A stretch of DNA of 64,000 nt from Sphingobacterium sp. (GCA_048595255.1 JBMDWK010000025.1:4342-68341), one strand, 5' to 3'; shown: positions 1 to 37,141, counted from the stretch's first letter. The notes: a model not told the origin generated them from the letters alone. Made by a program: numbers and translations.

Positions 1-1
1 A

Positions 2-538
2 AATCTTCAGGTTAGAAATGAAGCTACAGAAATGGAGTTGATGCCCTTTTACAAGTTACATGATAGTCGTTATATCATCTATTGGCCAAAGGTGAATTCC
101 TCATCAGAATTGGCAGAACGACTGGTAAAATACGAACGTGATGATTACCAAAGAAAACTCAATGCCATCACAGTTGATCAAGTACACTGCGGACAACAAC
201 AATCAGAGTCGGATCATGCTATTCAATACGAACTTTCCAATACCGGATCGGATAATGGTGTACAATGGCGGAATGCAACGGGATGGTTTGCTTATGAATT
301 AGCGAACAAAAATAAGCGTGCGAAACTACTTTGGATAGCAGATTTAGAAGGTAATTCGCAAAATTTCAATGTGCTGATCAATGGAGCTGTTGTAACCCCT
401 ACCGAAGTAAATGCTGATGGTAGATACTATCTGCTGGAGGATATAAATGAAAATATTAAGGTAAAACTCCAGGCCTTGCCGAATCAATCGGTTCCCAAAA
501 TTAAGGAAGTTAGGCTTTTATCGAATAAAATAGATTAA
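2..538 (+). CDS. C-terminal part of a GH146/GH127 beta-L-arabinofuranosidase-family protein (5'-truncated by window edge)
   Basis: Frame is open from base 2. 'LMPFYKLHDSRYIIYW' and 'VDQVHCGQQQSESDH' resemble the C-terminal region of Bacteroidota GH127/146 proteins. The catalytic domain lies outside the window. Confidence 0.7.
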   Translation, partial: NLQVRNEATEMELMPFYKLHDSRYIIYWPKVNSSSELAERLVKYERDDYQRKLNAITVDQVHCGQQQSESDHAIQYELSNTGSDNGVQWRNATGWFAYELANKNKRAKLLWIADLEGNSQNFNVLINGAVVTPTEVNADGRYYLLEDINENIKVKLQALPNQSVPKIKEVRLLSNKID

Positions 539-559
539 CTCCTAACATACAAACTCGCC

Positions 560-2491
560 ATGATGAATTTGAAAAGAATTATTCTTCCTTTTATAATTGT
601 CTTTGCCAATAGTGTTTTTGCACAACAAGAGCCAGTTGAAACTCAATTCGAAGGCTATCTCTTTGCTTATTTTGAAGGGAAGAGCGATCCGATGAAGCGC
701 GAGCATTTGCGGTTTGCGACGAGTTCGGATGCTCTTAAATGGAAAGCTTTAAATAACAATCATGCAGTGATTTCTTCCGATACCATTTCGAGTACTGGAG
801 GTATTCGCGACCCTCACTTATTACGCGGAGAAAATAAAGGTTTTTATTTGGTAGCTACAGATATGAAGACTTTTAAGGATGGATGGGACAATAATCCGGG
901 TATTGTGATGATGTATTCGGACAATTTGGTGGATTGGAAACATCAGGTCATCAATCTTGAAAAATCGTATCCTAAAAAGTTTAAAAATGTAAAATGGGTA
1001 TGGGCACCTCAAACATTTTATGATGCCAAGAAGGATAAATATCTGGTGTATTTCACTGTTCGTTATCATCATAATGATAAGTTAGATTTTTATGCCGCAT
1101 ATGCAAATAAGGATTTTACAGGTTTTGAATCGGAACCTAAATTGCTATTCAGTCCCCAATATGGAGGTATCGATGGAGATATAATTTTTGATAAAGGAAT
1201 TTATCACTTCTTCTACAAAGGAAACACCAAGGATGCAGCTGGCAAAGAATTCCAAAATGGTATCAAAGTGGCCACTTCAGCATCACTCTGGGGACCTTGG
1301 AGAGAAAATGAAGGATATGTAGACAGTTATGCAGATACATCTACTGTGGTAGAAGGATCTAGTATATTCAAACTCAATAATTCGGACGAATATATTCTGA
1401 TGTATGACGTATACGCAGATGGTCGCTATGAGTTTCAAAGAAGCACAGATTTATCTTCTTTTACACAAAAGCCTGAGACATTTACAAAGAATTTTGATCC
1501 GCGTCACGGCAGCATAATCTCTATTACGAAAGAAGAAGCTAGGAATTTGGATCGCAAATGGGGAGGTGTGGTGCCGGAGTTAGTTCAGCCAACGAAAAAA
1601 AATGATCGCTATGTATTCCAATCCAAAGGAAATCCTATTATTACACACCATTACACGGCAGATCCAGCTGCATTGGTTATGAATGATACGTTATGGATGT
1701 ATACAGGACATGATTTTGAAGGTGGGCAGCGTGATTACATCATGCGCGACTGGTTGGTGTATTCGACTACCGATATGAAAACTTGGACTGAATATCCAGT
1801 TCCACTGAAAGTAACAGACTTTGAGTGGGCGACTAGCAAGTCTGCATTTGCGGGCCATGTGGCAGAAAGAAATGGAAAATACTATTGGTATATCAGTACA
1901 AATTGGACAGGAATAGGTGTGGCTGTCGCGGATCGGCCTGAGGGTCCTTTCAAAGATGCTTTAGGAAAACCCTTATTGACCAATGAAGATTGTTTTGCTT
2001 CTACACATTCTTGGGCATGTATTGATCCTGCAATTTTTATTGATGATGACGGTACACCTTGGATATTTTGGGGTAATAGAGAATGCTATTATGCGAAGTT
2101 GAAAGATAATATGATTGAAATCGATGGGGAAATCAAACAAATTGATTTTGAAGGTTTTTCTTTCACAGAAGCTCCTTGGATGCATAAATATAAGGATAAG
2201 TATTATTTGACCTATGCAACAGAATTTCCTGAAAAGATAGCTTATGCAATGGCCGACAATGTCGAAGGACCATATGAATATAAAGGAATATTGAATGAGA
2301 TAGCTGGAAATAGCAATACCAACCATCAATCTATTGTGGAATTTAAAGGGGAATGGTACTTCCTTTATCATAATGGAGGAATTCAGACCGACGGGGGAAG
2401 TTATAGTCGTTCGGTATGCATTGATCGTATGGAGTATAATGCGGACGGTACAATCAAGCGCATTATTATGACTACTGAAGGAATATTATAA
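560..2491 (+). CDS. Secreted double-domain GH43 glycoside hydrolase (probable alpha-L-arabinofuranosidase)
   Basis: Signal peptide. Domain 1 motifs YLFAYF/IRDPH/WAPQ/IDGD/VEGS; domain 2 motifs NPII..YTADPA/WAC IDPA/FTEAPW/NHQS, typical of five-bladed GH43. Confidence 0.88.
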   Translation: MMNLKRIILPFIIVFANSVFAQQEPVETQFEGYLFAYFEGKSDPMKREHLRFATSSDALKWKALNNNHAVISSDTISSTGGIRDPHLLRGENKGFYLVATDMKTFKDGWDNNPGIVMMYSDNLVDWKHQVINLEKSYPKKFKNVKWVWAPQTFYDAKKDKYLVYFTVRYHHNDKLDFYAAYANKDFTGFESEPKLLFSPQYGGIDGDIIFDKGIYHFFYKGNTKDAAGKEFQNGIKVATSASLWGPWRENEGYVDSYADTSTVVEGSSIFKLNNSDEYILMYDVYADGRYEFQRSTDLSSFTQKPETFTKNFDPRHGSIISITKEEARNLDRKWGGVVPELVQPTKKNDRYVFQSKGNPIITHHYTADPAALVMNDTLWMYTGHDFEGGQRDYIMRDWLVYSTTDMKTWTEYPVPLKVTDFEWATSKSAFAGHVAERNGKYYWYISTNWTGIGVAVADRPEGPFKDALGKPLLTNEDCFASTHSWACIDPAIFIDDDGTPWIFWGNRECYYAKLKDNMIEIDGEIKQIDFEGFSFTEAPWMHKYKDKYYLTYATEFPEKIAYAMADNVEGPYEYKGILNEIAGNSNTNHQSIVEFKGEWYFLYHNGGIQTDGGSYSRSVCIDRMEYNADGTIKRIIMTTEGIL

Positions 2492-2532: not shown

Positions 2533-4452
2533 ATGAAACTACAACAACACAAAATTGCAATACTAATATTTTTTATTTTTCAAAGTATAGGGCATTATAC
2601 CTGTGCTCAAGAATATAAATCAGGGCCTGCCGAAAAAGATTATATAGGCTATTTATTCACGTATTTCAAAGGAAATGCCGTGGTAGATGAGGCTGTGTGC
2701 TATGCAGTGAGCACCGACGGATATAATTTTAAGACATTAAATAATAACCAACCTATTCTAAATTCTTCGGTCATCAGTTTGACAGGAGGGGTTCGTGATC
2801 CGCATATATTGCGCGGTCAGGATGGCAAGACTTTTTATATGGTCATCACGGATATGACTTCGAGTAAAGGTTGGGATTCCAATCGCGCCATGGTGCTATT
2901 GAAGTCAGATGATTTGATTAATTGGACACATTCTAATATCCATATTCAAAAGCGATTCATAGGTCATGATGATCTTAAACGTGTGTGGGCTCCCCAAACT
3001 ATTTATGATGAGTCGGTTGGGAAATATATGATTTATTGGTCAATGCAGCATGGTGATGGACCTGATATTATCTATTATTCCTATGCTAATGCAGATTTTA
3101 CGGATCTAGAAACAGAACCAAAACCTTTGTTTATTCCAAAAAACAAAAAATCCTGTATCGACGGCGATATCATTAATAAAAATGGTTTATTCTATCTTTT
3201 TTATAAAACAGAAGGTGATGGAAATGGTCTGCGCCTTGCGATTACGGATTCATTGACTTCGGGAAAATGGATTGAACAGCCAGGATACAAGCAACAGACA
3301 CAAGATGCGGTGGAAGGGTCGAGTATTTTTAAATTAAATCATTCGGACAAATACATTCTTATGTATGATGTCTATACCAAAGGCCGTTATGAATTTTGTG
3401 AGAGTGTAGATTTAGATAGATTTGAATTAATAGATCAAAATATATCGATGGATTTTCACCCAAGACATGGCTCTATTATTCCTATTTCAAGGTCTGAATT
3501 GATAGCCTTGACCGATAAATGGGGTAAACCGGAAGGTATTGAAATTCCTAAATCTAATAATCCTGTTTTAGAAGGCTATTATGCGGATCCAGACATTATT
3601 TATTCGCATAAACATAAAAAATATTACTTATATCCTACGAGTGATGGGTTTGATGGTTGGGGTGGCTATTATTTCAAGGCTTTCTCTTCCGACAATCTAA
3701 AAGATTGGAAGGATGAAGGTGTTATCTTGGATTTGAAAAAAGATGTGCCTTGGGGAAGTCGAAATGCTTGGGCGCCAACTATTACGGAGAAAAAGATAGG
3801 AAAAAATTATAAATACTTCTATTACTTCACAGCAGCGCAGAATATAGGTGTTGCGGTTGCGGATGAGCCAACTGGCCCTTTCAAAGATTCGGGTAAGGCA
3901 TTGATAGATTTCAAACCTGAGGGAGTACAAGGGGGACAAGAAATAGATCCAGCGGTGTTTAATGATCCAAAATCGGGTAAGAGCTACTTGTATTGGGGAA
4001 ATGGTTATTTGGCGGTAGCCGAATTGGAAAAGGATATGGTGAATATCAAGAAAAACACAATAAAGACCATTACACCCGATCGTACTTTTAGGGAAGGTGC
4101 TTTTGTAATTTATAGGCAAGGTAAATACTATTTCTTTTGGTCTGAAGACGACACAAGAAGTCCAAATTATAGTGTACGCTATGGCTATGCGGATTCACCA
4201 GTGGGTCCTATAACTGTTCCCGAGAATAATAAGATCTTACAAAAGGATGCCTCGAAAGGTATTTATGGACCAGGGCATAATTCTGTTATTCAGGTGCCTG
4301 GAAAGGATGAATGGTATATCGTCTATCATCGTTTTAGCATTCCAAATGGTGTTAAAATGGGAGATGCGGCTGGGTTTCACCGCGAAGTATGTATAGACCC
4401 CCTTGTATTTGACGAGAAGGGATATATTTTACCAGTTAATCCAAGCCTATAA
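2533..4452 (+). CDS. Secreted double-domain GH43 glycoside hydrolase
   Basis: Signal peptide. Domain 1 YLFTYF/VRDPH/WAPQ/IDGD/VEGS; domain 2 NPVLEGYYADPD/WAP/IDPA/FREG/GPGHNS. Confidence 0.88.
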   Translation: MKLQQHKIAILIFFIFQSIGHYTCAQEYKSGPAEKDYIGYLFTYFKGNAVVDEAVCYAVSTDGYNFKTLNNNQPILNSSVISLTGGVRDPHILRGQDGKTFYMVITDMTSSKGWDSNRAMVLLKSDDLINWTHSNIHIQKRFIGHDDLKRVWAPQTIYDESVGKYMIYWSMQHGDGPDIIYYSYANADFTDLETEPKPLFIPKNKKSCIDGDIINKNGLFYLFYKTEGDGNGLRLAITDSLTSGKWIEQPGYKQQTQDAVEGSSIFKLNHSDKYILMYDVYTKGRYEFCESVDLDRFELIDQNISMDFHPRHGSIIPISRSELIALTDKWGKPEGIEIPKSNNPVLEGYYADPDIIYSHKHKKYYLYPTSDGFDGWGGYYFKAFSSDNLKDWKDEGVILDLKKDVPWGSRNAWAPTITEKKIGKNYKYFYYFTAAQNIGVAVADEPTGPFKDSGKALIDFKPEGVQGGQEIDPAVFNDPKSGKSYLYWGNGYLAVAELEKDMVNIKKNTIKTITPDRTFREGAFVIYRQGKYYFFWSEDDTRSPNYSVRYGYADSPVGPITVPENNKILQKDASKGIYGPGHNSVIQVPGKDEWYIVYHRFSIPNGVKMGDAAGFHREVCIDPLVFDEKGYILPVNPSL

Positions 4453-6938
4453 TGAATCTTATTGCAAAACTACTTTTAAGCCATCTCCTATATTTTTGTT
4501 TTTTAGCTATCTCATTAGCACAACCAGGTTTTGGTGAGCCGACGAAGCTAAATAAGGGCTGGTTTTTCAAATTAGGTGATATACAGAATGGACAAAACCT
4601 AACTCAATTCGATCCTTCATTTCAACGATTAGATTTACCGCACGACTGGTCTGTAAAACAAAGTTTGAGTCCTACATTAGCAAGTGCTACAGGCTATTTG
4701 CCTGGCGGCATCGCTTGGTATTATAAAGTGGTGAATTTTTCGAAAGAAGATGCAGGAAAGAAATACTATGCATACTTCGAAGGGGTATATAATCGCAGTG
4801 ATGTATATATCAATGGACAATCATTAGGTCATCGCCCTAACGGTTACGTTTCATTTATGTATGATTTGTCTGCTCATATCAAGTACGGTGAACAGAATGT
4901 TATCGCTGTTCGAGTGAATCACAGTCAAGATGCAGATTCTCGCTGGTATACGGGATCTGGTATTTATCGTAACGTTTGGTTAGTCAAATCCGAGCCTGTA
5001 CATATAGATTTGTGGGGTGTATACTGCTATCCAGAGTTGAGTAAGGATAACGGAACGTTGCAGGTAGAATTGAACTTGGTTAACCACCTAAGTACTACAA
5101 AAAAATTAAAAGTGCAATACGAGCTTATTGATCCATTGGGTAAAGTTGTAGCTTTTAAAAGTGCATCAGAGAATATTCTTGCAAATGAAAAAAGAGTTTT
5201 CAAATCCAATCTCAATGTTTCCAAACCCCAACTTTGGTCCGTTGAGTCACCTCAATTATACCAATTGAAAACTAAAATTTTTGATAATAACAAATTGATT
5301 GATAGTAGCACCGTTAATACTGGTTTTCGTAAATTCACTTTTGACCCCAATAAGGGCTTTGCTTTGAATGATAAATGGATGAAAGTAAAAGGAATCTGTT
5401 TTCACCATGATGCAGGGGTATTGGGAGCCGAAGTGTATAAGGAGGTGTGGGAACGCCGTTTGTTGAATCTCAAAAAAATAGGGGTGAATGCAGTGCGCAC
5501 GAGTCACAATCCTCAATCTCCGATTATTTATGAATTGTGTGATAGGCTTGGGCTATTGGTGTTGAACGAAGTATACGATGAATGGGAATTCCCTAAACGT
5601 AAATGGCTTCAAGGCTGGAATATAGGCACTCCTGGTTTTCAAGGTACATTCGATTTTTTTGAAGAATGGGGCGAACGAGACTTAGCCGATATAGTGCGAC
5701 GCGATCGCAACCATCTATCTGTATTTGCATGGAGTATTGGTAATGAAGTGGATTATCCGAATGATCCCTATTCTCACCCTATATTGAACGGTGACAAAAA
5801 CCAAGGTTTTACGCAAGCTATCTATGGCGGATACAAGAAAGACGCTCCTGATGCGATGCGTTTGGGAATTATTGCTAAGAAGTTAACAGCGGTAGTGAAA
5901 AAATACGATCAAAGTCGCCCTGTGACAGCTGGTCTGGCTGGCGTAGCTATGTCCAATGAAACAGAATACCCTGGCGCCTTAGATATTACCGGTTACAATT
6001 ATACGGAGAGCAAATATCACGAGGATCACAAGAGATATCCAAATCGTATAATCTTTGGCAGTGAAAACAGACATGATTTGGCTGCTTGGAAAGCAGTGGT
6101 AGATAATGATTTCATTTTTGGTCAATTCTTATGGACGGGGATTGATTATTTAGGAGAATCAAGAGCATGGCCTTCTCGTGGATTTTATTCGGGATTAATG
6201 GATTTGGGCGGTTTCATCAAACCGAGAGGCTATTTTAGACAATCTCTCTGGGCTGAAGAACCTATGATTTATATCGGAACATACCCATTATCAGATACTA
6301 AGTGGGAAAATAATTCTTTTGTTTTTGAAATCAATGAACGTCGTAAACTTGATCCCCCATCTATTGACGCATGGCCTCATTGGAATTATCAATCTGGACA
6401 ATTAGTTCGTGTAGTGGTTTATACCAATGCAACGCAAGCTTACTTGTTATTAAATGGAAAACCAATTGACGAAAAAAAATCGGATAAAGGTAGTTTTGGT
6501 GTTCTATATTGGGATGTACCATACTCCGCAGGCATATTGGAAGCTATTGGATTAGATGAGAATGGTAAAGAAATATCTCGTCATTCGATACAGACAAGTG
6601 GTCGTCCTGATGCGATTACTGTCAATCAAGAGCAAATTGAAGTGGCGAAGAATGATGGTGCAGGACAAATTGAAATTCAAATTGTTGATGCAAAAGGAAT
6701 ACCCGTATCATTATCAGAGGAGGAAATTACTTTTGAATCTACACCCAATATTAGATTGTTGGGTATGGAAGCAGGGAATAATTCAGATATGACAAGTTAT
6801 ACCGATAATCGGCATCGCGTATTTAGGGGTAGAATGATTATTTATTTCAAATCGCACGATGAAACAAGTAAGGAAGGTAAAATTTTGCTAAAATCAGACT
6901 GGCTGAAACCAAAGGAAGTGACCGTTATATTTAAATAA
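4452..6938 (+). CDS. GH2 glycoside hydrolase (beta-galactosidase-like)
   Basis: LPHDW, YFEGVY, RWYTGSGIYRNV, RTSHNP, WSIGNEV (acid/base) and FGSE (nucleophile) motifs. Start overlaps the upstream stop (TAATG). Confidence 0.92.
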   Translation: MNLIAKLLLSHLLYFCFLAISLAQPGFGEPTKLNKGWFFKLGDIQNGQNLTQFDPSFQRLDLPHDWSVKQSLSPTLASATGYLPGGIAWYYKVVNFSKEDAGKKYYAYFEGVYNRSDVYINGQSLGHRPNGYVSFMYDLSAHIKYGEQNVIAVRVNHSQDADSRWYTGSGIYRNVWLVKSEPVHIDLWGVYCYPELSKDNGTLQVELNLVNHLSTTKKLKVQYELIDPLGKVVAFKSASENILANEKRVFKSNLNVSKPQLWSVESPQLYQLKTKIFDNNKLIDSSTVNTGFRKFTFDPNKGFALNDKWMKVKGICFHHDAGVLGAEVYKEVWERRLLNLKKIGVNAVRTSHNPQSPIIYELCDRLGLLVLNEVYDEWEFPKRKWLQGWNIGTPGFQGTFDFFEEWGERDLADIVRRDRNHLSVFAWSIGNEVDYPNDPYSHPILNGDKNQGFTQAIYGGYKKDAPDAMRLGIIAKKLTAVVKKYDQSRPVTAGLAGVAMSNETEYPGALDITGYNYTESKYHEDHKRYPNRIIFGSENRHDLAAWKAVVDNDFIFGQFLWTGIDYLGESRAWPSRGFYSGLMDLGGFIKPRGYFRQSLWAEEPMIYIGTYPLSDTKWENNSFVFEINERRKLDPPSIDAWPHWNYQSGQLVRVVVYTNATQAYLLLNGKPIDEKKSDKGSFGVLYWDVPYSAGILEAIGLDENGKEISRHSIQTSGRPDAITVNQEQIEVAKNDGAGQIEIQIVDAKGIPVSLSEEEITFESTPNIRLLGMEAGNNSDMTSYTDNRHRVFRGRMIIYFKSHDETSKEGKILLKSDWLKPKEVTVIFK

Positions 6939-11921: not shown

Positions 11922-11939
11922 CCCATAATGATTCAATTT

Positions 11940-22209: not shown

Positions 22210-22236
22210 AGAGTAAGTTATTAATTGAAAATAGAT

Positions 22237-26911: not shown

Positions 26912-28663
26912 ATGAACACTGCCAAAACAGCCAATTTAATTCTTACTTTGTTTCTTACCAACACTGTCCTAATGGCGCAAGACTTATATCAACACACTAC
27001 ACCTATTGAACCGCTTGTGATTCAATATGGCCATGATCAGCAAGCTATCAATTACTTTTATGGCCCTATGCCCAAAGGTTGGGGCTATCAACAAGCTGCA
27101 GAGTCACCTGAGCAGATTCAGCGTCTCATCACTTTGGATAATGAATATCTTCGAAAGTTAAAAGATTTCCCTTATTCTCAATTGAATACCAATGGGCAGG
27201 TTGATTATATTTTACTTGATCGTAAGGTGAAATTTGATTTGGAAGCCTTGCAAGAGCAGTTGAAAACCTATGAACGATTGAAAAGTTATGTGCCCTTTGA
27301 TCATATAATCTATGACTTCGAAAAACTTAGAAGACGAGGTACATCGATAAATGGAGAAGAAATAGCGGGAAATTTACAGCATGCCATTAAGCTAGTTAAA
27401 GAAGCTTCTGAAAAATTAAATAATGTAGATGCTATTCCATATGCAGATGTAGGTTTTCTAAAAGAGGTTATTAACTCCTTAAAGCTTCGGTTAACGAGTG
27501 CCTTTGATTTCTATAATGAATACGATCCCCTATTCACTTGGTGGGTACCGGCGCCCTACCAACAGTTATCGGAAGAATTGAACAATTACAGTAAATTGAT
27601 CACCGAAAAGAGCGATTGGAAAGTATTTAATGATGGAAGTAATATTGGAGGTGCTCCAATCGGAAAACAAGCATTCAACAAGCAATTAAAAGATGAAATG
27701 ATTGCTTACACCACAGATGATTTGCTTCGGTTAGCAGAACAAGAATTCGCATGGTGTGAAGCAGAACTTTTAAAAGCTTCACAGGAAATGGGCTTCGGCA
27801 AAGATTGGAAAGCAGCACAAGAAAAAGTTAAAAACACGTATGTTCCTGAAGGAAAGCAACCAGAGCTGATCCTAAAATTATATAACGATGCGCAAGAGTT
27901 TATCCGTAAGCATGATCTGATGGATATTCCAGCACTGGCTGATGAAACTTGGGGAATGATAATGATGACTGCAGAGCGGCAATTGGTGAATCCCTTTTTT
28001 ACAGGTGGACGTGAAATCAGTATTTCGTATCCAACGAATACCATGACACAAGAGCAAAAACTGATGAGTATGCGCGGGAATAATCCTTACTTTTCCCGTG
28101 GAACGGTACAGCATGAACTAAATCCTGGTCATCACTTACAATATTTCATGAATAGAAGATACAAACCTTACCGTGAAAGAGCTTTCAATACGCCATTCTG
28201 GACAGAGGGATGGACCTTGTACTGGGAGTTATTGATGTACGAAAAAGGTTTTGCAAACACGCCAGAAGAAAGAATCGGTATGTTGTTTTGGCGTATGCAC
28301 CGTTGTGCACGAATCACCTTTAGTATCAAATTCCATTTGGGAGAATGGACACCGCAGCAATGTATAGATTATTTGGTAGATAGGGTAGGTTTTGAGCGTG
28401 CGAATGCGCATGGAGAGGTTAAACGTTCATTTGAGGGCTCATATGGTCCATTATACCAATTGGCGTATTTGGTGGGAGGCTTACAAATGATGAGTATTAA
28501 AAAAGAAGTGGTAGATACCGGAAAAATGACTTACAAAGAATTCCATGATCGTGTGATTAAGGAAAATTATATGCCCTTAGAGATGTTACGCGCGATTTTG
28601 ACTGATCAAAAGCTAGCGCCCGATCATCAGACATCTTGGAAGTTTTATCAATTTAAAAGATAA
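26912..28663 (+). CDS. DUF885-family protein (putative zinc metallopeptidase)
   Basis: N-terminal signal-like segment; 'HELNPGHHLQ', 'EGWTLYWE', 'YQLAYLVG' motifs. Confidence 0.75.
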   Translation: MNTAKTANLILTLFLTNTVLMAQDLYQHTTPIEPLVIQYGHDQQAINYFYGPMPKGWGYQQAAESPEQIQRLITLDNEYLRKLKDFPYSQLNTNGQVDYILLDRKVKFDLEALQEQLKTYERLKSYVPFDHIIYDFEKLRRRGTSINGEEIAGNLQHAIKLVKEASEKLNNVDAIPYADVGFLKEVINSLKLRLTSAFDFYNEYDPLFTWWVPAPYQQLSEELNNYSKLITEKSDWKVFNDGSNIGGAPIGKQAFNKQLKDEMIAYTTDDLLRLAEQEFAWCEAELLKASQEMGFGKDWKAAQEKVKNTYVPEGKQPELILKLYNDAQEFIRKHDLMDIPALADETWGMIMMTAERQLVNPFFTGGREISISYPTNTMTQEQKLMSMRGNNPYFSRGTVQHELNPGHHLQYFMNRRYKPYRERAFNTPFWTEGWTLYWELLMYEKGFANTPEERIGMLFWRMHRCARITFSIKFHLGEWTPQQCIDYLVDRVGFERANAHGEVKRSFEGSYGPLYQLAYLVGGLQMMSIKKEVVDTGKMTYKEFHDRVIKENYMPLEMLRAILTDQKLAPDHQTSWKFYQFKR

Positions 28664-28668
28664 ACCAG

Positions 28669-30081
28669 ATGGAAGCGGAAAAACCAATCTTTAAAAAATC
28701 ACTGACGCTTTTGGATGCTACCATGCTGGTGGTGGGTAGCATGATTGGCTCAGGAATTTTTATTGTGACAGCGGATATTGTACGTAATACTGGTTCAGCA
28801 GGATGGATGATGATAATCTGGACAATAAGTGGTATTATGACTTTGATTGCCGCAATAACCTATGGAGAGCTGAGTGCGATGTTTCCAAAAGCAGGAGGTC
28901 AGTATGTCTATTTACGTGAAGCGTACAATCCTTTAGTGAGTTTTGTGTTTGGCTGGACATTTTTTGCAGTTATTCAGACAGCGACAATTGCTGCGGTGGG
29001 GGTAGCTTTTGCCAAATTTACAGCGTATCTGTTTCCCGTATTGGACGAAGACGTGATATTGCTCACGTTAGGGAGTTTCAAAATTTCTTCTGCTCAACTC
29101 TTATCTATAGGTATTATTTTGGTTTTGACATTTATTAATTCAAGAGGTGTCAATGCGGGGAAATGGGTGCAGACGAGTGTTACGTTGTTCAAATTATTAA
29201 GCTTGTCTTTGTTAGTATTATTTGGGTTCTTAGCCTTCAAGCATGAGGTTTGGAATCTGAATTGGCTATCCGCGGACACCTGGACTCTACGCAAACTAAA
29301 CCTTGATGGCTCATTTGAAAACTACAGTACATTCGCCGCTTTAGGCGCTATATCTGCTGCAATGGTAGGGGCACTTTTCAGCAGTGACTCTTGGCATTCT
29401 TCTTCAGCTGTTGCAGGAGAAATAAAGAATCCACAACGAAATATAGGATTAAGTCTGGCTTTAGGAACAATAATCGTAACCATAATTTATCTGCTCACTA
29501 ATCTGATGTACAGTACCGTGCTGGATCTCAATACGATGATCAATGCCCCGAAAGATCGTGTTGCGATGAGCGTAGCACAGGAAATTTTTGGTCCTGTGGG
29601 AATTACTATTCTGGCTATTATGATCATGATTAGCACATTTGGCTGTAACAATGGATTAATTATGGCAGGGGCTAGAGTGTATTATTCAATGGCTGAAGAT
29701 GGATTATTCTTCAAGAAGGCTAAAGGTTTGAATACGTATTCTGTTCCCGGGTATGCGTTATGGATACAAGGATTAGTTTCTTCGCTTTGGTGTTTAAGTG
29801 GTAAATATGGGGATTTACTCGATATGATAACATGTGTAGTGGTGGTATTCTATGTGTTAGCGATTTATGGTGTGATTCGTTTACGAAAGAAAAAACCTAA
29901 TTTAGAACGCCCTTATAAAGCTTTTGGGTATCCGATACTGCCTATACTTTATATAATCATGGGAATGGCTTTTATCATTTCCCTCATATTATTCAAACCA
30001 ACTTATACAATTTTGGGAGCCGTAATAGCACTATTGGGCATTCCCATATATTACCTTATAAAATCTAAGCAACATGATTAG
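28669..30081 (+). CDS. APC-family amino acid permease
   Basis: 'GSMIGSGIF', 'ELSAMFPKAGGQYVYL', about 12 hydrophobic segments. Confidence 0.92.
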   Translation: MEAEKPIFKKSLTLLDATMLVVGSMIGSGIFIVTADIVRNTGSAGWMMIIWTISGIMTLIAAITYGELSAMFPKAGGQYVYLREAYNPLVSFVFGWTFFAVIQTATIAAVGVAFAKFTAYLFPVLDEDVILLTLGSFKISSAQLLSIGIILVLTFINSRGVNAGKWVQTSVTLFKLLSLSLLVLFGFLAFKHEVWNLNWLSADTWTLRKLNLDGSFENYSTFAALGAISAAMVGALFSSDSWHSSSAVAGEIKNPQRNIGLSLALGTIIVTIIYLLTNLMYSTVLDLNTMINAPKDRVAMSVAQEIFGPVGITILAIMIMISTFGCNNGLIMAGARVYYSMAEDGLFFKKAKGLNTYSVPGYALWIQGLVSSLWCLSGKYGDLLDMITCVVVVFYVLAIYGVIRLRKKKPNLERPYKAFGYPILPILYIIMGMAFIISLILFKPTYTILGAVIALLGIPIYYLIKSKQHD

Positions 30082-32308
30082 AAAAATATTAATTATAATT
30101 CTGTTTATTGCAAATGTAGGGGCTGCTGCTGCTCAGGGAACGTTAGCAGATTATCAGCGTTCTAAAAAGTTTCGGGAGGCATTGGCTGATATTTATTACA
30201 TTCCCACTAATATAAAGTGGAATAAGGGCGGAAATGCTTTTTTATATGAACAGCGGACACCGCAAGGAAGAGAATTTGTATGGGTAGATGTTGCAGCACG
30301 CAAGAAGGAGGCCTTGTTTGACATTAGGTTGTTAGCCGAGCAGCTAGATAAGCAGTCTGGGCAACAGTTAGATATTAATTTGTTAAGTGGCTTTACAACC
30401 AAATTGTTGGGTAAAGACACGGTCGAGTTTACTTACAAAAATGCAATATGGCAATGGAATAGAATATCTTCAAACTTGAAGAAAGTTCGTGATGTAGAAG
30501 AAAATCCGAGGTCGGGAGGTTATTGGGGGCAGCGTCGGGATGATACCCAAGGCAGACCTGTGGTATCACCTGATAAAAAGAAAACAGCTTATATCAAAAA
30601 CCATAACTTGTATTTTGCTCTCGTGGATGATCCAAAATCGGAAAAGCAACTGACTTATGATGGCAATCCCGGCGAATATTATGCCGCCAATATACAATGG
30701 TCCCCCGATAGTAAAAAAATTGCTGGTTCGCGTGTGACCAAACAGGACGTGCGAATATTAACACTATTGGAATCTTCTCCAGCAGATCAATTACAGCCTA
30801 AACTGCAAACGCGTCATTATGCAAAACCTGGTGATGCATTGCCTCAATACTATCCCGTGATTTGTAATATCGAAACGAATAAGGTTTTTGCTATTGACAA
30901 GCAATTTGTAGACAATCAATTTTCCCTCGGATATGCTTCATGGCGGCAGGATAGTAAAAGTGTGACTTTTGAATTTAATAAACGTGGACATCAGCAATAT
31001 GCGATAGTGAAGCTGGACGCTGAAACGGGACAAAGTAAGTATATAATTAATGAGGTAAGCAACACGTTTATTGATTACAGTGGCAAGAAATTTAGATATG
31101 ATGTTAATGATGGAAAGGAAATCATTTGGTCATCAGAAAGAAATGGCTGGAATCATCTATACCTTTTTGACGGAGAATCTGGACAAATAATTAATCAGAT
31201 TACTGAAGGTGAATGGGTAGTAAGGAAAGTTGTAAATGTAGATGAGAAAAATCGTCAGATTATCTTTGAAGGGAGTGGACGTAATAAAAAGGAAGATCCT
31301 TATTTAATTCACTATTACAAAGTGGGTTTTGACGGTAAGAATTTGAAAGAACTTACCAAAGAAGAGGCAAACCATACTGCCTATTTCAATGAAGATTTCT
31401 CGTATTTTGTAAATCAATATTCCCTGATCAATAAAGTTCCTGTAACTGTATTACGGGATGGATCTGGAAAGGTGGTCATGGAGTTAGAAAGTGGAAATGT
31501 ATCTAAATTGCAAGACTTTGGCTGGAGAGCGCCTGAAGTGTTCACGGCAAAAAGCAGAGATAACAAATTTGATATCTGGGGAATTATCGTTCGTCCTACG
31601 AATTTCGACCCTTCCAAAAAATACCCAGTGATTGAGTATATTTATGCAGGGCCCCACAGTTCCTTTGTGCCTAAAACATTCAACGCAAACCCGAGTGGTA
31701 TGCAAGAACTTGCAGAATTAGGATTCATTGTGGTGCAAATAGATGGAATGGGGACATCCAATCGATCCAAAGAATTTCATAATGTAGCCTGGAAAAATTT
31801 GAAAGACGCAGGCTTTCCGGATCGTATAAAATGGATACAAGCAGCTGCTCAAAAGTATAATTACTTGGATATTGAGCGGGTAGGTATTTATGGTACTTCT
31901 GCGGGAGGCCAAAGCTCCACTGGTGGCGTATTATTCCATCCCGAATTTTATAAAGTGGCTGTATCTTCTTGTGGTTGTCATGATAATAGAATGGACAAAA
32001 TTTGGTGGAATGAACAGTGGATGGGCTGGCCTGTCGGTCCTGAATATGCTGAATGTTCTAATATTGAAAATGCTTACCGCTTACAAGGTAAATTGATGTT
32101 GATTGTGGGTGAATTGGATGATAATGTTGATCCATCATCTACGTATCAATTAACTAATGCATTGATCAAAGCAAACAAAGATCACGAACTGATTGTAGTA
32201 CCAGGAATGGGGCACTCTTCGGGAGGAGACTACGGAGAAAGAAAACGTCGCGACTTCTTCGTAAAAAATCTTCATGGTGTAACTCCCCCTGCTTGGAACA
32301 CATATTAA
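30074..32308 (+). CDS. S9B (DPP-IV-like) prolyl oligopeptidase, secreted/periplasmic
   Basis: Signal peptide, beta-propeller region, catalytic triad GTSAGG / LDDNV / GMGH. Confidence 0.9.
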   Translation: MIRKILIIILFIANVGAAAAQGTLADYQRSKKFREALADIYYIPTNIKWNKGGNAFLYEQRTPQGREFVWVDVAARKKEALFDIRLLAEQLDKQSGQQLDINLLSGFTTKLLGKDTVEFTYKNAIWQWNRISSNLKKVRDVEENPRSGGYWGQRRDDTQGRPVVSPDKKKTAYIKNHNLYFALVDDPKSEKQLTYDGNPGEYYAANIQWSPDSKKIAGSRVTKQDVRILTLLESSPADQLQPKLQTRHYAKPGDALPQYYPVICNIETNKVFAIDKQFVDNQFSLGYASWRQDSKSVTFEFNKRGHQQYAIVKLDAETGQSKYIINEVSNTFIDYSGKKFRYDVNDGKEIIWSSERNGWNHLYLFDGESGQIINQITEGEWVVRKVVNVDEKNRQIIFEGSGRNKKEDPYLIHYYKVGFDGKNLKELTKEEANHTAYFNEDFSYFVNQYSLINKVPVTVLRDGSGKVVMELESGNVSKLQDFGWRAPEVFTAKSRDNKFDIWGIIVRPTNFDPSKKYPVIEYIYAGPHSSFVPKTFNANPSGMQELAELGFIVVQIDGMGTSNRSKEFHNVAWKNLKDAGFPDRIKWIQAAAQKYNYLDIERVGIYGTSAGGQSSTGGVLFHPEFYKVAVSSCGCHDNRMDKIWWNEQWMGWPVGPEYAECSNIENAYRLQGKLMLIVGELDDNVDPSSTYQLTNALIKANKDHELIVVPGMGHSSGGDYGERKRRDFFVKNLHGVTPPAWNTY

Positions 32309-32323: not shown

Positions 32324-32354
32324 AAAGAAAGATTCCACATAGGAATCTTTTTTT
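32324..32354 (+). terminator. Intrinsic terminator ending the Hyp operon
   Basis: AAAGATTCC-acata-GGAATCTTT followed by Ts. Confidence 0.8.
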
Positions 32355-32570: not shown

Positions 32571-35516
32571 ATGAAAAGAATTATACTATTATTACTTCTA
32601 ACCTTTAACGTCATTTCTTATTGTATAGCACAGCAGAAAATCATGTTAAAAGGTAAAGTTGTCACGTCGAATGGAGAAGCTGTAGCGGGAGCAACGGTTA
32701 GTTTACAAGGTACATCTACTCAAACATCAACAGATACGGATGGTCTTTTTTCCATCGAGTACGCCAACCCAAGTACAGTTGTAGTCACAGCCATTGGATA
32801 TAACACATATCAAACTGCTCTAAATGGACAAACTACACTTTCTTTTCAACTGGAAGCCTCTTCAGAATCGATAGAACAAGTCGTGGTAGTAGGATATGGT
32901 ACCCAAAAAAGAGGAGAGGTGACGAGTTCGATTGCGAGTGTGCGTGCTGAGGATTTTACGAAAGGTGCTATCAAAGATGCGGGCCAATTAATCCAAGGTA
33001 AGGTAGCGGGTTTACGTGTTACTACTCCAAATGGTGACCCCAATGGTATAACTCAAATTAATTTGAGAGGTTTGAATTCTATTAATGGTTCTCAAAATCC
33101 ATTGGTTATTATCGATGGAATTCCTGGGAATATTAACACCGTGGCTCCTGAAGATATTGAGTCCGTAGATGTATTGAAAGATGGTTCAGCAGCGGCTATT
33201 TACGGTACACGTGCTACGAGCGGTGTGATTCTGATTACGACGCGCAGAAATACCTCTAAAGAAAGCAAATCTACTGTCGAATATAATAATTATGTGAATT
33301 GGCAAACGCTTTTCAGAAAGCCAGAAATGCTTACAGCTGATGATTATAGAAGATTAATAGGTGAAGGTAAAACATATGAAGATCTAGAAAGTAATACAAA
33401 TTGGGTAGACGAGGTCACCCAAAGTCCAGTAAGCCATAATCATAATTTGATTTTTTTTGGAGGAAATGCACAAACTAACTTTACCGGAACTGTAAATTAC
33501 AGAAACTGGGAAGGGGTGTTATTGAAAAGTGGCCAAGACCGTTTAAATCTTCGTGCGAATTTGAATCATGACATGTTTGATGGTAAGGTAAAAACCAATA
33601 TTCAGGTGATGAATCAAAGCATTAAAGCACTGCAAGGAGGTTCTTCGGATTACATGTGGAGACAAGCCATTATTCGCAATCCTACTGATGCTATTTATAA
33701 TACAGCAGGCAAATGGCAAGAAAGAAATGCGTATATGTATGATAACCCTTTGGGTATGATTCATGAAACGATAAATGATCGCATCTGGCGTGAAACACGT
33801 ATGAATGGTTCGGTGGATTATAGACCCATTAGAGATTTAAGCATCAAAGCCTTGATGTCTCGTGTACAAACAAATGATTTGTACGGAAATGCCACATCTT
33901 TTGACCATGTCAATACAACAAAAAACAACTTAAATGGTACGGCTTCGCGATCTACTAATGCGGATGTAGAGAATCTATTGGAATTGACCGCCAACTTTTC
34001 AAAGACTCTGGGTGACCATAAACTTGGTGGATTGGTAGGATACAGTTATCAAGATAATACAGCAGAAAATTTTTATGCCTATAACTTTGACTTCCCTACA
34101 GATAATTACACCTATAATAAATTGGAAGCTGGTACAGCGTTACAACGTGGTATGGCTACCATGACCAGTTACAAAAGCGAATGGAAATTAGCAGGATTCT
34201 TCGCACGTGCCACATATAGTTTTAAAGAGAAATATATGGCTATGGCTTCTATTCGTCGTGAAGGTTCATCTACTTTCGGTGAGAATAATAAATGGGGTAA
34301 TTTTCCAGCGGTCTCAGTAGGTTGGGATATATCAAAAGAAGACTTCTTACTTGATAACGGAAGTATCAACCAATTGAAATTAAGAGCAGGATTTGGTGTG
34401 ACAGGTACTATTGCATCCTCCTCATACATGTCCCAGACCAGTTATAATTTTGATAGAGGACAAGGAGCATATATCAATGGCCGATGGGTGCCGGGATTTG
34501 TTCCTGTACGTAATTTTAACCCGGATCTACGCTGGGAGAAAAAACAAGAATACAATTTTGGTATAGATTATAGTTTATTCAATAATCGTGTGTATGGTTC
34601 ATTGGATTATTATTCTAGACAGATTAAAGACCTCTTATACCAATTTAACGTTCCCTCTCCACCGTATTTGTATTCAAGCATGATGCTAAATGCGGGTGAG
34701 CTGAGTAATCGGGGTTTTGAAATGCTAGTGAATGTCAACGCTATTCAAAAAGATACCTTCAAATGGCGTTCAGGAATCACTCTCTCTACAAATAAAAATA
34801 AATTATCAAATTTATCCAACGACAAATTCAACGTCACAGTACCATTTTTTGACGCAGGCTATACAGGAGAGCCTATTCAGACTTCAACACATCGTGTAGA
34901 AGTAGGTCGCGCGGTGGGAGATTTCTTTGTATGGAAGACTGTAGGTGTCGACGACGACGGCAAATGGTTGGTGGAAAACAAGGAGGGGGAAACTATTTCT
35001 CTTGCGAATGCTGGTCCTGATGATAGACAATACTATGGTAATGGTATCCCAGATTTTAATTTGGGATGGAATAATAGCTTTATGTATAAAAATGTGGATT
35101 TGAGCTTCAGTTTCAGAGGTGCCTTCGGTCACCAAATCCTAAATATGACGCGCATGTATTATGAAAATCCTATTAATAAAGCATACAATGTTTTAAAAAC
35201 AGCTTATGACCCCGTATATGGTAAGACCTTGAATAACGATCTAGTGTATGTTTCTCATTATATCGAAGATGGTGATTATTTGAAATTGGATAATTTAACT
35301 ATAGGATACACTTTTCCTCAGCAACTCATCAAAGGGGTTTCAGCATTACGTGTGTATGCATCAGGATTAAACTTACTCACTATCACAAACTACAAAGGTT
35401 TGGATCCAGAAGCGACGAGTTTCTCGGGTGACTTTACTTTCGCTCCAGGTATAGAGCATAGAGATAGATATCCTACTACTAGAACTTTCACTGCAGGTCT
35501 TAATGTTTCATTCTAA
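32571..35516 (+). CDS. susC: SusC/RagA TonB-dependent transporter (pair 2)
   Basis: 'VVVGYGTQK', 'PLVIIDGIP', 'DGSAAAIYGTRA', 'LRWEKK', C-terminal F. Confidence 0.95.
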   Translation: MKRIILLLLLTFNVISYCIAQQKIMLKGKVVTSNGEAVAGATVSLQGTSTQTSTDTDGLFSIEYANPSTVVVTAIGYNTYQTALNGQTTLSFQLEASSESIEQVVVVGYGTQKRGEVTSSIASVRAEDFTKGAIKDAGQLIQGKVAGLRVTTPNGDPNGITQINLRGLNSINGSQNPLVIIDGIPGNINTVAPEDIESVDVLKDGSAAAIYGTRATSGVILITTRRNTSKESKSTVEYNNYVNWQTLFRKPEMLTADDYRRLIGEGKTYEDLESNTNWVDEVTQSPVSHNHNLIFFGGNAQTNFTGTVNYRNWEGVLLKSGQDRLNLRANLNHDMFDGKVKTNIQVMNQSIKALQGGSSDYMWRQAIIRNPTDAIYNTAGKWQERNAYMYDNPLGMIHETINDRIWRETRMNGSVDYRPIRDLSIKALMSRVQTNDLYGNATSFDHVNTTKNNLNGTASRSTNADVENLLELTANFSKTLGDHKLGGLVGYSYQDNTAENFYAYNFDFPTDNYTYNKLEAGTALQRGMATMTSYKSEWKLAGFFARATYSFKEKYMAMASIRREGSSTFGENNKWGNFPAVSVGWDISKEDFLLDNGSINQLKLRAGFGVTGTIASSSYMSQTSYNFDRGQGAYINGRWVPGFVPVRNFNPDLRWEKKQEYNFGIDYSLFNNRVYGSLDYYSRQIKDLLYQFNVPSPPYLYSSMMLNAGELSNRGFEMLVNVNAIQKDTFKWRSGITLSTNKNKLSNLSNDKFNVTVPFFDAGYTGEPIQTSTHRVEVGRAVGDFFVWKTVGVDDDGKWLVENKEGETISLANAGPDDRQYYGNGIPDFNLGWNNSFMYKNVDLSFSFRGAFGHQILNMTRMYYENPINKAYNVLKTAYDPVYGKTLNNDLVYVSHYIEDGDYLKLDNLTIGYTFPQQLIKGVSALRVYASGLNLLTITNYKGLDPEATSFSGDFTFAPGIEHRDRYPTTRTFTAGLNVSF

Positions 35517-35527
35517 CCCTTACTATT

Positions 35528-37141
35528 ATGAAAATGTTTAAAACGATTAAAAGTAGTTTTTACTATATATTATTAGCTTCAGCATGTACAGTAATGAATG
35601 CATGTACAGATTTGGATGAAAAAGTATATTCTGAGGTGTTATCTAGCGATTTTCAACCATCCGAGCGGGATTTGCCATATATCATGGCTCCAGTTTATTC
35701 ATCATTTCGTACGCTTATGTTTGGTTGGCAAGGTTATTTTGATTTACAGGAAGAGTCCGCAGACCATATCATTACACCCGTCAGACCTAATGGCTGGGAT
35801 GATGGAGGTACTTATCGTCGTATGCACCAACACGCTTGGAATGCGTTGCAATGGCAACCATACAATACTTGGCAACAGGCGTATTCGAGTATTACCAAGG
35901 CAAATATGGTGATCATGCAGATAGAAGATGGTACTTTGCCTTTACAAGGAGATGTCGCTAAAGCTGCTATAGCCGAATTACGTGCTGCAAGAGCACTAGC
36001 ATACTACCTCTTATTGGACAATCATGGTAACGTACCTATCGTAACAGATTATCGTGATGTCGAATTGCCACAACAAAAAACACGCAAGGAATTGTATGAT
36101 TTTTTATTGAAAGAATTAACGGAAGCTATTCCTGATCTGTCTACAGAAGTGAGCTCCATGTATGGTAGAATGAATGTATGGGCAGCTAAATCGTTATTAG
36201 CCAGAATATACTTGAATGCACAAGTATACATAGGTACTCCAGAATGGGAAAAAGTAATCACACTGACGAATGAAATTATAAACTCCAATCATTATCGGTT
36301 GGATAATGATTACAAAAATGTGTTCTCATCAACAAATCACACTTCTCCCGAAATAATCTTTGCTGTACCTTATGATGAAATCTATGGTCAGGGTAGTCAG
36401 TTACATATGAAAACTTTAGATCCCTTGAGCCGATTGGTATATAATATGACTGCTGGTCCTTGGGGAGGTAACTGTGCTGTTCCTCAATTCATAGATACTT
36501 ACGATGTAGAGGACCAACGTCTTTATGATAGTTGGATTCAAGGTCCTCAATACCATGCTTCTTCGGGAGAGTTGGTGATTACTTATGTCAAAGAAGTTCC
36601 AGGTATAGGTGGTGATGGAACTATCGCTCCTTCAAATTCTGGCTACCGTATAGGTAAATATGCAATCAAAAATGGAGCAACTAACAATCTCGATAATGAT
36701 TACCCAATGTTCAGATACGCGGAAATCTTAATGATGAAAGCAGAAGCTCTTTTAAGAACAGGAAGAGCTAATGAGGCTGCTGGATTAGTAACACAAGTGC
36801 GCGAAAGAGCTTTCCGTATTAATCCAACAAAAGCAACAGTTACAGGAGCACAATTGAATGGTGGTAGTGTCTATAATTATGGATTGCAAAATAAAAACGG
36901 AACAGTTAATGGATCCGCAGGAGGAGCTGACATACAATATGGACGTTTCTTGGATGAATTAGGATGGGAATTTACTGCGGAAGCCAAGAGAAGACAAGAT
37001 ATTATCCGCTTTGGCGTATTTCAAACCAAATCATGGTTTAATCATAGCCCACATGTCAATGCGCAAAGCCGAACATTATTTCCTATTCCCGAAAATGAAT
37101 TAAACAAAAACTCGAATCTGAGCCAAAATCAAGGATATTAA
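35528..37141 (+). CDS. susD: SusD/RagB lipoprotein (pair 2)
   Basis: Lipobox NAC; 'RAARALAYYLLLDNHGNVP', 'FRYAEILMMKAEA', 'ELGWEFTAEAKRRQDIIRF'. Confidence 0.93.
   Translation: MKMFKTIKSSFYYILLASACTVMNACTDLDEKVYSEVLSSDFQPSERDLPYIMAPVYSSFRTLMFGWQGYFDLQEESADHIITPVRPNGWDDGGTYRRMHQHAWNALQWQPYNTWQQAYSSITKANMVIMQIEDGTLPLQGDVAKAAIAELRAARALAYYLLLDNHGNVPIVTDYRDVELPQQKTRKELYDFLLKELTEAIPDLSTEVSSMYGRMNVWAAKSLLARIYLNAQVYIGTPEWEKVITLTNEIINSNHYRLDNDYKNVFSSTNHTSPEIIFAVPYDEIYGQGSQLHMKTLDPLSRLVYNMTAGPWGGNCAVPQFIDTYDVEDQRLYDSWIQGPQYHASSGELVITYVKEVPGIGGDGTIAPSNSGYRIGKYAIKNGATNNLDNDYPMFRYAEILMMKAEALLRTGRANEAAGLVTQVRERAFRINPTKATVTGAQLNGGSVYNYGLQNKNGTVNGSAGGADIQYGRFLDELGWEFTAEAKRRQDIIRFGVFQTKSWFNHSPHVNAQSRTLFPIPENELNKNSNLSQNQGY

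Follow-up and report, generated by a model that had tools for sequence, protein, structure and literature searches.

A Sphingobacterium polysaccharide utilisation locus joined to prolyl peptidases and hydroxyproline catabolism is a probable glycopeptide utilisation locus for hydroxyproline-rich glycoproteins

We analysed a 64,000-nucleotide stretch of DNA from Sphingobacterium sp. (GCA_048595255.1 JBMDWK010000025.1:4342-68341), hereafter the window, whose first 37,141 positions hold 21 genes combining glycosidases, SusC/SusD import proteins, proline-directed peptidases and a hydroxyproline (Hyp) catabolic route. This block is probably a glycopeptide utilisation locus for plant (or algal) hydroxyproline-rich glycoproteins (HRGPs) that carry L-arabinofuranosides on Hyp, and it suggests a polysaccharide utilisation locus (PUL) extended to the use of glycopeptides and an imino acid. 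The coupling of its sugar-directed and peptide-directed halves is supported by gene content, predicted protein location, tight gene spacing, synteny that is both conserved and rearranged, a gene fusion, and the fold of a DUF5695 protein. All enzymatic specificities, substrates and regulatory links named below are inferred from sequence. The original prediction, likewise made from the sequence alone, had joined the glycosidases, prolyl peptidases and Hyp catabolism into one unit for HRGPs and had named extensin as the substrate; synteny supports the unit, while extensin specifically is not established.

Open reading frame listing with Pfam, NCBIfam and PDB searches defined the genes of the block (Table 1). 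Adjoining susC and susD genes occur together with carbohydrate-active enzymes and an AraC-family regulator, the gene content expected of a PUL. Most of the inventory first proposed was recovered: two SusC/SusD pairs (7162-11921 and 32571-37141), four GH43 domains (two Pfam stretches in each of two proteins), a GH2, one M24 and one DPPIV-type S9 proline-directed peptidase, a DUF885 protein, a permease and, at 22225-26882, the four enzyme families of a full Hyp route, of which the epimerase passes a curated model and the other three are putative assignments. Of the two GH146-type enzymes claimed, one is a full GH146; the supposed second is only the last 178 codons of a GH127-type gene that the window edge truncates. 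At the junction of the two halves lie two genes that the earlier account had left out, one encoding the DUF5695 protein and the other the AraC regulator. Signal peptides are predicted for the GH43 proteins, GH2, GH146, DUF5695, DUF885 and the S9 peptidase, and for neither the M24 peptidase nor the Hyp enzymes. The seven genes from DHDPS to the S9 peptidase (22225-32308, plus strand) are tightly packed, with gaps of at most 30 bp or overlaps, and the M24 gene begins 2 bp downstream of DUF5695 on the same minus strand.

The original prediction had named synteny in relatives beforehand as the observation on which it would stand or fall, and such synteny is present, in rearranged forms and not by recent descent alone. 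A metagenome scan added 80 DUF5695 loci to those of close relatives, and all open reading frames were clustered without reference to the window in a survey of 82 loci. The commonest neighbour was an ortholog of the S9 peptidase (33 of the 82 loci), followed by GH146 (25, with 5 more in another GH127 cluster), a GH43 protein with F5/8-C and LamG domains (22), AraC (20), DUF885 (19), the permease and DHDPS (17 each), aldehyde dehydrogenase (14), the Hyp epimerase and the DAO-family enzyme (13 each), SusD2 (12) and SusC2 (10). Families recurring alongside these were a small lipoprotein with a HEFAH motif (12), DUF6055 (HExxH) proteins (9), a NUDIX-type AraR (8), araA, a sodium-solute symporter and a mutarotase (7 each), and araB and araD (5 each). 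The neighbours occur in at least six different arrangements, and the association recurs, rearranged, across Sphingobacteriales, Chitinophagales, Cytophagales and Bacteroidales-type contigs. Even where DUF5695 is less than 66% identical to that of the window, 19 of 34 loci retain a proline-peptidase ortholog and 21 of 34 a GH127/146. By our own estimate, which is not a computed control, the chance that an ortholog with one or two copies in a 5-Mb genome lies no more than 10 kb from a given gene is about 1%. The recurrence of S9, GH146 and Hyp genes beside DUF5695 in rearranged loci favors functional coupling.

The arrangements themselves are informative. Relatives at 84-94% identity (L082-L085) keep the whole block, with the SusC1/D1 cassette and the permease as optional elements; this cassette, including its two lipoproteins, is present in L083, L087 and L113 and missing from L082, L084 and L085, and the lipoprotein at 11928-12623 accompanies SusC1/D1 in each of the three loci that have it. 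Orthologs of SusC2 (37-54%) open runs of the form SusC-SusD-...-DUF5695-GH127-S9, in which SusD2 orthologs (35-75%) also lie, and of the two pairs it is SusC2/D2 that is conserved with the core. In four metagenome contigs (L116, L118, L120 and L122), DUF5695 and the GH127 catalytic domain form a single reading frame; that of L116 (10001-15583) encodes a Pfam-confirmed fusion of 1860 residues, comprising DUF5695 and the GH127 catalytic and middle domains and followed by the S9 ortholog; both L116 and L122 read SusC2-SusD2-[DUF5695~GH127 fusion]-S9. A compact same-strand run of the Proteiniphilum type (L164) consists of SusC-SusD-GH127-two HEFAH proteins-DUF5695-S9, L138 and L151 share the order permease-S9-GH146-DUF885-DUF5695-GH42-GH43...GH36, and in L134 a GH146 ortholog lies immediately 3' of S9. 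DHDPS-HypE-DAO-S9-GH146-DUF5695 is followed in L154 by GH51 and GH127 and then by araB/araD/araA. L-arabinose genes (araB, araD, araA, mutarotase and sodium-solute symporter) with the NUDIX-type AraR flank GH146-DUF5695-GH127 in L154 (17302-21204), L155 (15602-19500), L163 and L142.

A second survey, anchored on the Hyp epimerase and restricted to one genome per species, yielded 80 Bacteroidota loci extending 10 kb to each side, onto which the window proteins were mapped; counts refer to the 63 loci of at least 15 kb. The core of AraC, DHDPS, aldehyde dehydrogenase, epimerase and DAO is almost universal, and AraC orthologs adjoin DHDPS in most of these loci. An ortholog of M24, DUF885 or S9 is found in 33 of the 63 (M24 in 22, DUF885 in 16), the permease in 19, and DUF5695 or GH127/146 in 9. 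In Sphingobacterium (L001-L004), DUF5695 adjoins AraC or comes after the S9 gene, and in L004 a GH146 ortholog (68%) lies immediately 3' of S9. Olivibacter ginsenosidimutans (L016) has a 789-residue GH127 with a DUF4986/DUF6805 tail between M24 and AraC, the slot that DUF5695 occupies in the window. A Chitinophagaceae genome (L025) encodes DHDPS-epimerase-GH127-M61 peptidase-DAO on a single strand with gaps of 23-42 bp, and Pontibacter chitinilyticus (L055) combines SusC-SusD-S9, AraC and a run of Hyp genes-DUF885-S9-GH127-GH127. The GH127 assignments in these last three loci were confirmed by Pfam. Separately, a gene of the ornithine cyclodeaminase/mu-crystallin family lies between DUF885 and DAO in L113 (18058-18999), and its product may be the pyrroline-2-carboxylate reductase of a trans-3-Hyp route.

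DUF5695 is the most informative gene of the locus. Its family, PF18951, has at least 2882 homologs, all of them unnamed and none characterised, and neither phmmer nor a 40-sequence profile matched any PDB sequence, 5nok/5no8 included. An AlphaFold2 model built from the 40-sequence alignment (mean pLDDT 83, pTM 0.86) is made up of a beta-sandwich region at the N-terminus, a helical domain of (alpha/alpha)6 type and a beta-sandwich at the C-terminus. When this model was compared to the PDB with Foldseek, BACCELL_00875 (5nok/5no8) came far ahead of all other structures, with an E value of 1.4e-25, a TM score of 0.79 on the target and 15-17% identity; none of the 50 listed matches was a GH121 structure. 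BACCELL_00875 founded PL27, a family of L-rhamnose-alpha-1,4-D-glucuronate lyases that uncap the arabinogalactan protein (AGP) of gum arabic (PMC8377490). DUF5695 has the beta-sandwich and (alpha/alpha)6 barrel in common with PL27 and falls outside that family by sequence. The modeled fold makes DUF5695 very probably a carbohydrate-active enzyme, and its chemistry is not readable from the fold. Since beta-elimination needs a uronic acid, which a Hyp-O-glycoside does not have, DUF5695 would have to be a hydrolase on a PL27-like scaffold if its substrate is an arabinoside. Two segments, residues ~678-711 and 755-768, are nearly invariant (e.g., PHWGYNGSAxRYWDF...RxERQLHHYG), and no other internal part of the model shares their pLDDT of under 50; these segments may form loops of the active site or for cofactor binding. 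DUF5695 is probably a new enzyme family. More tentatively, and as a possibility that we hold short of probable, it may found a new family of carbohydrate-active enzymes that works with GH127/GH146 on Hyp-linked beta-L-arabinofuranosyl chains, either as a counterpart of GH121 or by attacking the arabinoside in its peptide context.

Among the glycosidases, the 13819-16854 protein is assigned to GH146 by its sequence matches. The best of its PDB matches is BT0349 (5opj, 3e-71), ahead of Bll3HypBA1 (8k7y, 2e-36) and the GH127 enzyme HypBA1 (3e-9), and it has the Zn/nucleophile motif E740xC742...C810C811, with residue equivalence taken from spacing. In many loci, its orthologs (59-74%) adjoin either DUF5695 or the gene of the S9 peptidase. 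The DUF4986 and DUF6805 tail at the left edge also follows GH127 catalytic domains in L150, L025, L055 and L016, which points to a GH127-type protein, a label under which GH127 and GH146 are indistinguishable from the tail. Upstream of position 1, a homolog search with the tail returned a single fragment, and neither GH43a nor this fragment gave a match when looked up exactly. The C-terminal domain of GH43a is close to 3qed, presumably CjAbf43A, an arabinan alpha-1,2-arabinofuranosidase, and an ortholog of GH43b (60%) adjoins DUF5695 and Hyp genes in L022. More generally, the nearest solved relatives of the two GH43 proteins are arabinan or AGP enzymes.

On the peptide side, the S9 enzyme combines a DPPIV_N propeller and an S9 catalytic domain with the nucleophile motif GTSAG at 607, features that place it in S9B, and its best PDB relatives are 2d5l/2z3w, which we take to be the prolyl tripeptidyl peptidase of Porphyromonas gingivalis. 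The M24 protein scores below the cut-offs of the NCBIfam Xaa-Pro aminopeptidase and dipeptidase models, and the PDB relatives of DUF885 are uncharacterised proteins only. DAO, DHDPS and Aldedh are the superfamilies expected beside the epimerase and are kept in ~80 loci; none of the three passes an equivalog-level model, the DHDPS-family protein falling under the NCBIfam dapA cut-off (197.5 versus 206.15).

Together, these genes can be arranged in a hypothetical pathway. A SusC/SusD pair (SusC2/D2 being the one conserved with the core) would bind and import HRGP fragments, from which the secreted GH43 alpha-arabinofuranosidases would take off alpha-arabinofuranosyl (alpha-Araf) caps in the periplasm. 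GH146, the GH127-type enzyme and DUF5695 would trim the beta-L-Araf chain down to Hyp, and the exposed Pro/Hyp-rich peptide would be shortened by the S9 prolyl di/tripeptidyl peptidase and by DUF885, a putative HExxxGHH zinc peptidase. Hyp or small peptides could then enter through the APC permease, the cytoplasmic M24 Xaa-Pro peptidase would release Hyp, and the epimerase, D-Hyp dehydrogenase, DHDPS-family deaminase and aldehyde dehydrogenase would convert it to 2-oxoglutarate. The AraC regulator probably governs both the DUF5695-M24 unit and the Hyp operon.

Table 1. Genes of the block at positions 1-37,141 of the window, with predicted functions and their basis.
Coordinates	Strand	Predicted product	Basis and remarks
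2..538	+	3' end of GH127-type beta-L-arabinofuranosidase gene	Pfam DUF6805 2e-32, DUF4986
560..2491	+	GH43a, secreted, two GH43 domains	Pfam GH43, 2 stretches; PDB 3qed 1e-97; signal peptide
2533..4452	+	GH43b, secreted, two GH43 domains	Pfam GH43, 2 stretches; PDB 3qz4 1e-108
4452..6938	+	GH2, beta-galactosidase type	Pfam GH2 N/TIM/C5; PDB 5t9a 3e-160 and many beta-galactosidases
7162..10293	+	SusC-like TonB-dependent transporter 1	Pfam Plug, CarboxypepD_reg
10308..11921	+	SusD-like lipoprotein 1	Pfam SusD-like_3, SusD_RagB; lipoprotein signal
11928..12623	+	Lipoprotein, candidate surface glycan-binding protein	No Pfam match; lipoprotein signal
12640..13629	+	DUF5007-like lipoprotein, candidate surface glycan-binding protein	Pfam DUF5007 match, weak and under cut-off; lipoprotein signal
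13819..16854	+	GH146 beta-L-arabinofuranosidase, 1011 aa, N-terminal LamG and Big_4	Pfam PF07944 3e-74, PF20736; PDB
16932..18329	-	Cytoplasmic M24B Xaa-Pro amino/dipeptidase	Pfam AMP_N, Peptidase_M24; no signal peptide
18332..21043	-	DUF5695 protein, 903 aa, secreted, PL27-like fold	Pfam, 1296 bits
21269..22153	+	AraC-family regulator (cupin and helix-turn-helix)	Pfam; divergent from DUF5695-M24, upstream of Hyp operon
22225..23160	+	DHDPS-family enzyme, putative pyrroline-4-hydroxy-2-carboxylate deaminase	Pfam DHDPS
23147..24598	+	Aldehyde dehydrogenase, putative 2-oxoglutarate semialdehyde dehydrogenase	Pfam Aldedh; kept in Hyp loci
24604..25602	+	4-hydroxyproline 2-epimerase	NCBIfam NF010578 equivalog, 572.8 bits (cut-off 376)
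25629..26882	+	FAD-dependent DAO-family enzyme, putative D-hydroxyproline dehydrogenase	Pfam DAO 4e-63; kept in Hyp loci
26912..28663	+	DUF885, secreted, putative zinc peptidase	Pfam; HELNPGHH motif
28669..30081	+	APC-family amino-acid permease, putative uptake of Hyp/small peptides	Pfam AA_permease_2
30074..32308	+	Secreted S9 prolyl di/tripeptidyl peptidase	Pfam DPPIV_N, Peptidase_S9; PDB 2d5l 2e-54
32571..35516	+	SusC-like TonB-dependent transporter 2, putative glycopeptide importer	Pfam
35528..37141	+	SusD-like lipoprotein 2	Pfam

Several observations weigh against reading the block as a single HRGP locus. The coupling is frequent and not obligatory from either side: Chryseobacterium loci (L005-L014) contain the Hyp core and M24 only, with no glycosidase, so the Hyp module is able to stand alone, and in about seven Sphingobacterium-like contigs (L090-L104) DUF5695 is accompanied by only GH43 and SusCD, with no peptidases. 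The SusC1/D1 cassette is joined to the core in close relatives only, with few exceptions, and GH43a, GH43b and GH2 are tied to it mainly in relatives of at least 84% identity, plus L022. The loci of both surveys share ancestry and are not independent, and their counts stand without a formal background model. Arabinan or AGP, and not extensin, is the substrate of the nearest solved relatives of the glycosidases, namely BT0349 and CjAbf43A, and of PL27, the nearest to DUF5695 by fold. No window open reading frame was recognised as GH121, for which no specific profile was used, and neither an alpha-galactosidase (for Ser-O-Gal) nor an obvious surface endopeptidase was seen in the window. The sole RNA evidence consists of fragmentary low-depth contigs of a wastewater metatranscriptome that span GH146 through S9, and hence both halves; these establish presence only and do not distinguish substrates. 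We found no isolate RNA-seq for the locus.

Some of the enzymes not seen in the window have counterparts at other DUF5695 loci. L138 encodes a GH42 beta-galactosidase and a GH36 alpha-galactosidase (12694-14793 and 18855-21065) in a same-strand run with permease-S9-GH146-DUF885-DUF5695. This GH36 would suit extensins with their Ser-O-alpha-Gal, a linkage beyond the reach of the window's own enzymes. DUF6055 HExxH proteins, of which the window has no homolog, lie by DUF5695 in L150 (1274-5146), L125 (5109-6911), L119 (4871-6865) and L138 (21263-22573); one carries fibronectin-III domains and a type IX secretion system sorting tail, and others carry DUF4859. The HEFAH family, also with no member in the window, consists of exported proteins of ~290 residues, mostly lipoproteins, with an invariant HEFAH motif and a resemblance to the anthrax lethal-factor domain that is no more than faint; its genes lie immediately upstream of DUF5695, at times in two copies (L116, 9052-9942; L164, 8145-8948 and 8989-9864). 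Both families are candidates for the secreted or surface endopeptidase not recognised in the window.

The same architecture could serve a different HRGP, namely AGP, with type II arabinogalactan on Hyp in place of extensin-type Hyp-arabinosides; we consider this variant of the proposal unlikely. GH43, GH146 and GH2 would in that case trim side chains, DUF5695 would act in PL27-like fashion on the capped uronic acid, and the peptidases and Hyp route would use the core protein. The fold of DUF5695 leans toward AGP, its top structural match, BACCELL_00875, being an AGP Rha-GlcA lyase of PL27 (PMC8377490), and so does the LamG, Ig and GH146 layout common to the window's GH146 and Bll3HypBA1, which removes beta1,3-Araf from AGP (PMC10850190). 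The beta-galactosidase type of the GH2 lies in the same direction, and the GH42 of L138 adds to the case for AGP. Yet DUF5695 has no sequence similarity to PL27, and neither the window nor the recurrent DUF5695 neighbours showed any family of exo-beta-1,3-galactanases, beta-1,6-galactanases or beta-glucuronidases. The dominant and conserved partners are instead beta-L-arabinofuranosidases, in the context of an L-arabinose regulon and L-arabinose catabolism, and beta-Araf is a minor cap in AGP and the main chain in extensin-type glycans (PMC10850190). These features lean toward Hyp-arabinosides.

A more radical alternative, which we regard as distinctly improbable, holds that the block is two unrelated neighbours that adjoin through the clustering of nutrient loci and share no substrate. 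One would be a PUL for arabinan or pectin side chains (GH127, the GH43s, GH2, SusCD1, GH146 and DUF5695), and the other a locus for peptides with collagen-type Hyp (AraC, the Hyp route, DUF885, the permease, S9, M24 and SusCD2). The stand-alone occurrence of both modules favors such a division, the Hyp core with M24 having no glycosidase at its side in Chryseobacterium and in numerous further genera, and DUF5695 with GH43 and SusCD being free of peptidases in the Sphingobacterium-like contigs described above; the arabinan specificity of the nearest solved glycosidase homologs and the terminator-like hairpins between transcription units are consistent with it. However, the proposed boundary is crossed repeatedly. 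The most frequent DUF5695 neighbour is a peptidase of the other half, S9, which often shares a same-strand run with GH127/146; the Hyp operon of L025 has GH127 and an M61 peptidase inserted into it; GH127 takes DUF5695's slot by AraC and M24 in L016; GH146 directly follows S9 in L004 and L134; and in the window itself DUF5695 and the cytoplasmic M24 peptidase, 2 bp apart, form one transcription unit. A collagen-only reading of the Hyp/peptidase half is likewise rejected as the only account, since several genera have GH127 and DUF5695 embedded among those genes; this reading stays valid for genera that have the Hyp core alone, such as Chryseobacterium.

The right edge of the block had been placed correctly at 37141, since the genes 3' of it (NAD synthase, GldB, panC, alternative complex III and cytochrome oxidase) are housekeeping genes. 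An alternative complex III-like set (50691-57717; multihaem cytochrome c, an Fe-S/molybdopterin-type subunit and an NrfD-type membrane subunit) comes first, with cytochrome oxidase subunits II and I after it (59006-62231); this is ordinary aerobic Bacteroidota respiration and unconnected with the locus. Two adjoining FKBP-type peptidyl-prolyl isomerase genes and a thioredoxin-like gene (41344-42637) beside a TonB-dependent receptor gene (43216-45444) are probably housekeeping as well. GC content is even across the window (0.35-0.41), and Rfam and tRNA scans of the window gave no matches. The nearest named relatives are Sphingobacterium species (82-85% identity for the epimerase, about 70% for DUF5695), the exact DUF5695 sequence is recorded solely on a metagenome-derived contig, and metagenomes of straw, roots, soil, manure and bioreactors contain near-identical DNA; the habitat is plant litter and rhizosphere.

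We also compared the regions upstream of SusC1, GH146, DUF5695/AraC, DHDPS and SusC2 for common 11-mers, and only AT-rich or chance-level matches were obtained; TTATTCTGC, present three times among the compared intergenic regions, is one example. A common operator for the units of the locus thus gains no usable support from this comparison. The sigma-70 promoter model is not applicable to Bacteroidota, and promoter and terminator scans gave counts not above those of shuffled controls. Hairpins at 6970-6998, 13643-13664, 16891-16921 and 32328-32350 fall in intergenic gaps, which is weak evidence for unit boundaries.

HRGPs (extensins, AGPs, solanaceous lectins and algal wall proteins) form a large nitrogen-containing fraction of plant and algal walls, and their microbial turnover is poorly understood. 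The systems known from Bifidobacterium and Xanthomonas take arabinose only, and a locus that joins deglycosylation, Pro/Hyp proteolysis, uptake and Hyp catabolism would widen the PUL concept. It would also offer a testable natural substrate for beta-L-arabinose PULs that lack one, and would place three uncharacterised families, DUF5695, DUF885 and DUF6055, in a biological context. Should DUF5695 found a new enzyme family as proposed above, the SusCD-GH127/146-DUF5695-S9 module would be a widespread Bacteroidota HRGP glycopeptide utilisation locus, and the orphan beta-L-arabinose PULs of gut Bacteroides would be explained. Cultured carriers exist (Sphingobacterium spp., Pontibacter chitinilyticus and Olivibacter ginsenosidimutans), which makes the hypothesis directly testable. 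In a non-exhaustive literature search, we found nothing relevant on DUF5695 and no Bacteroidota PUL coupled to extensin use or to Hyp catabolism, in agreement with the initial view that this coupling is undescribed. Extensin use in Latescibacteria has been inferred in silico from the presence of GH127 alone (PMC4454575).

The closest functional parallels are the clusters of Bifidobacterium longum (HypBA1/HypBA2/HypAA, BLLJ_0211-0213) and Xanthomonas euvesicatoria (XeHypBA1/BA2/AA, XCV2724-2729), which, like the window, bring GH127/GH146 and GH43 together; the two clusters are dedicated to Hyp-linked arabinooligosaccharides. The GH146 members XeHypBA1 and Bll4HypBA1 cleave Araf-beta1-Hyp (PMC10850190), and the xehypAA gene of Xanthomonas has as its neighbour a prolyl oligopeptidase pseudogene, to which the authors ascribed a suggested role in HRGP degradation (PMC6085000, PMC7263609, PMC10850190). 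Those clusters rely on an arabinobiosidase of GH121, with either an ABC transporter or free secretion, and harvest the sugar only. In contrast, the window has no recognised GH121 and instead has SusC/SusD import, DUF5695, a permease, more than one Pro-directed peptidase and a putatively complete Hyp route.

Within Bacteroidota, the Bacteroides thetaiotaomicron arabinan PUL (BT0349, the founding GH146) and the Bacteroides AGP PULs (PL27: BT0263, BACCELL_00875) follow the same logic of SusC/SusD import and periplasmic exo-glycosidases, with BT0349 the nearest solved homolog of the window's GH146 and PL27 the fold nearest to DUF5695. To our knowledge, these PULs lack both peptidases and genes of amino-acid catabolism, and their central enzymes are endo-arabinanases or galactanases, neither of which is recognisable in the window. 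PUL8 of Bacteroides intestinalis (GH127, GH146 and GH97) is, like the window, dominated by beta-L-arabinose-directed enzymes; its natural substrate is open, and HRGPs have been named as one source of beta-L-arabinose (PMC11949833). Compared by its description only, PUL8 has no reported peptidase or Hyp genes. The bacterial L-Hyp clusters of Pseudomonas and Sinorhizobium match the window in having the four enzyme families adjoining and a regulator beside them. Whereas these classical clusters take up the free imino acid via dedicated transporters, the window places the same route in a tight run with secreted peptidases, amid glycosidases and SusC/SusD proteins.

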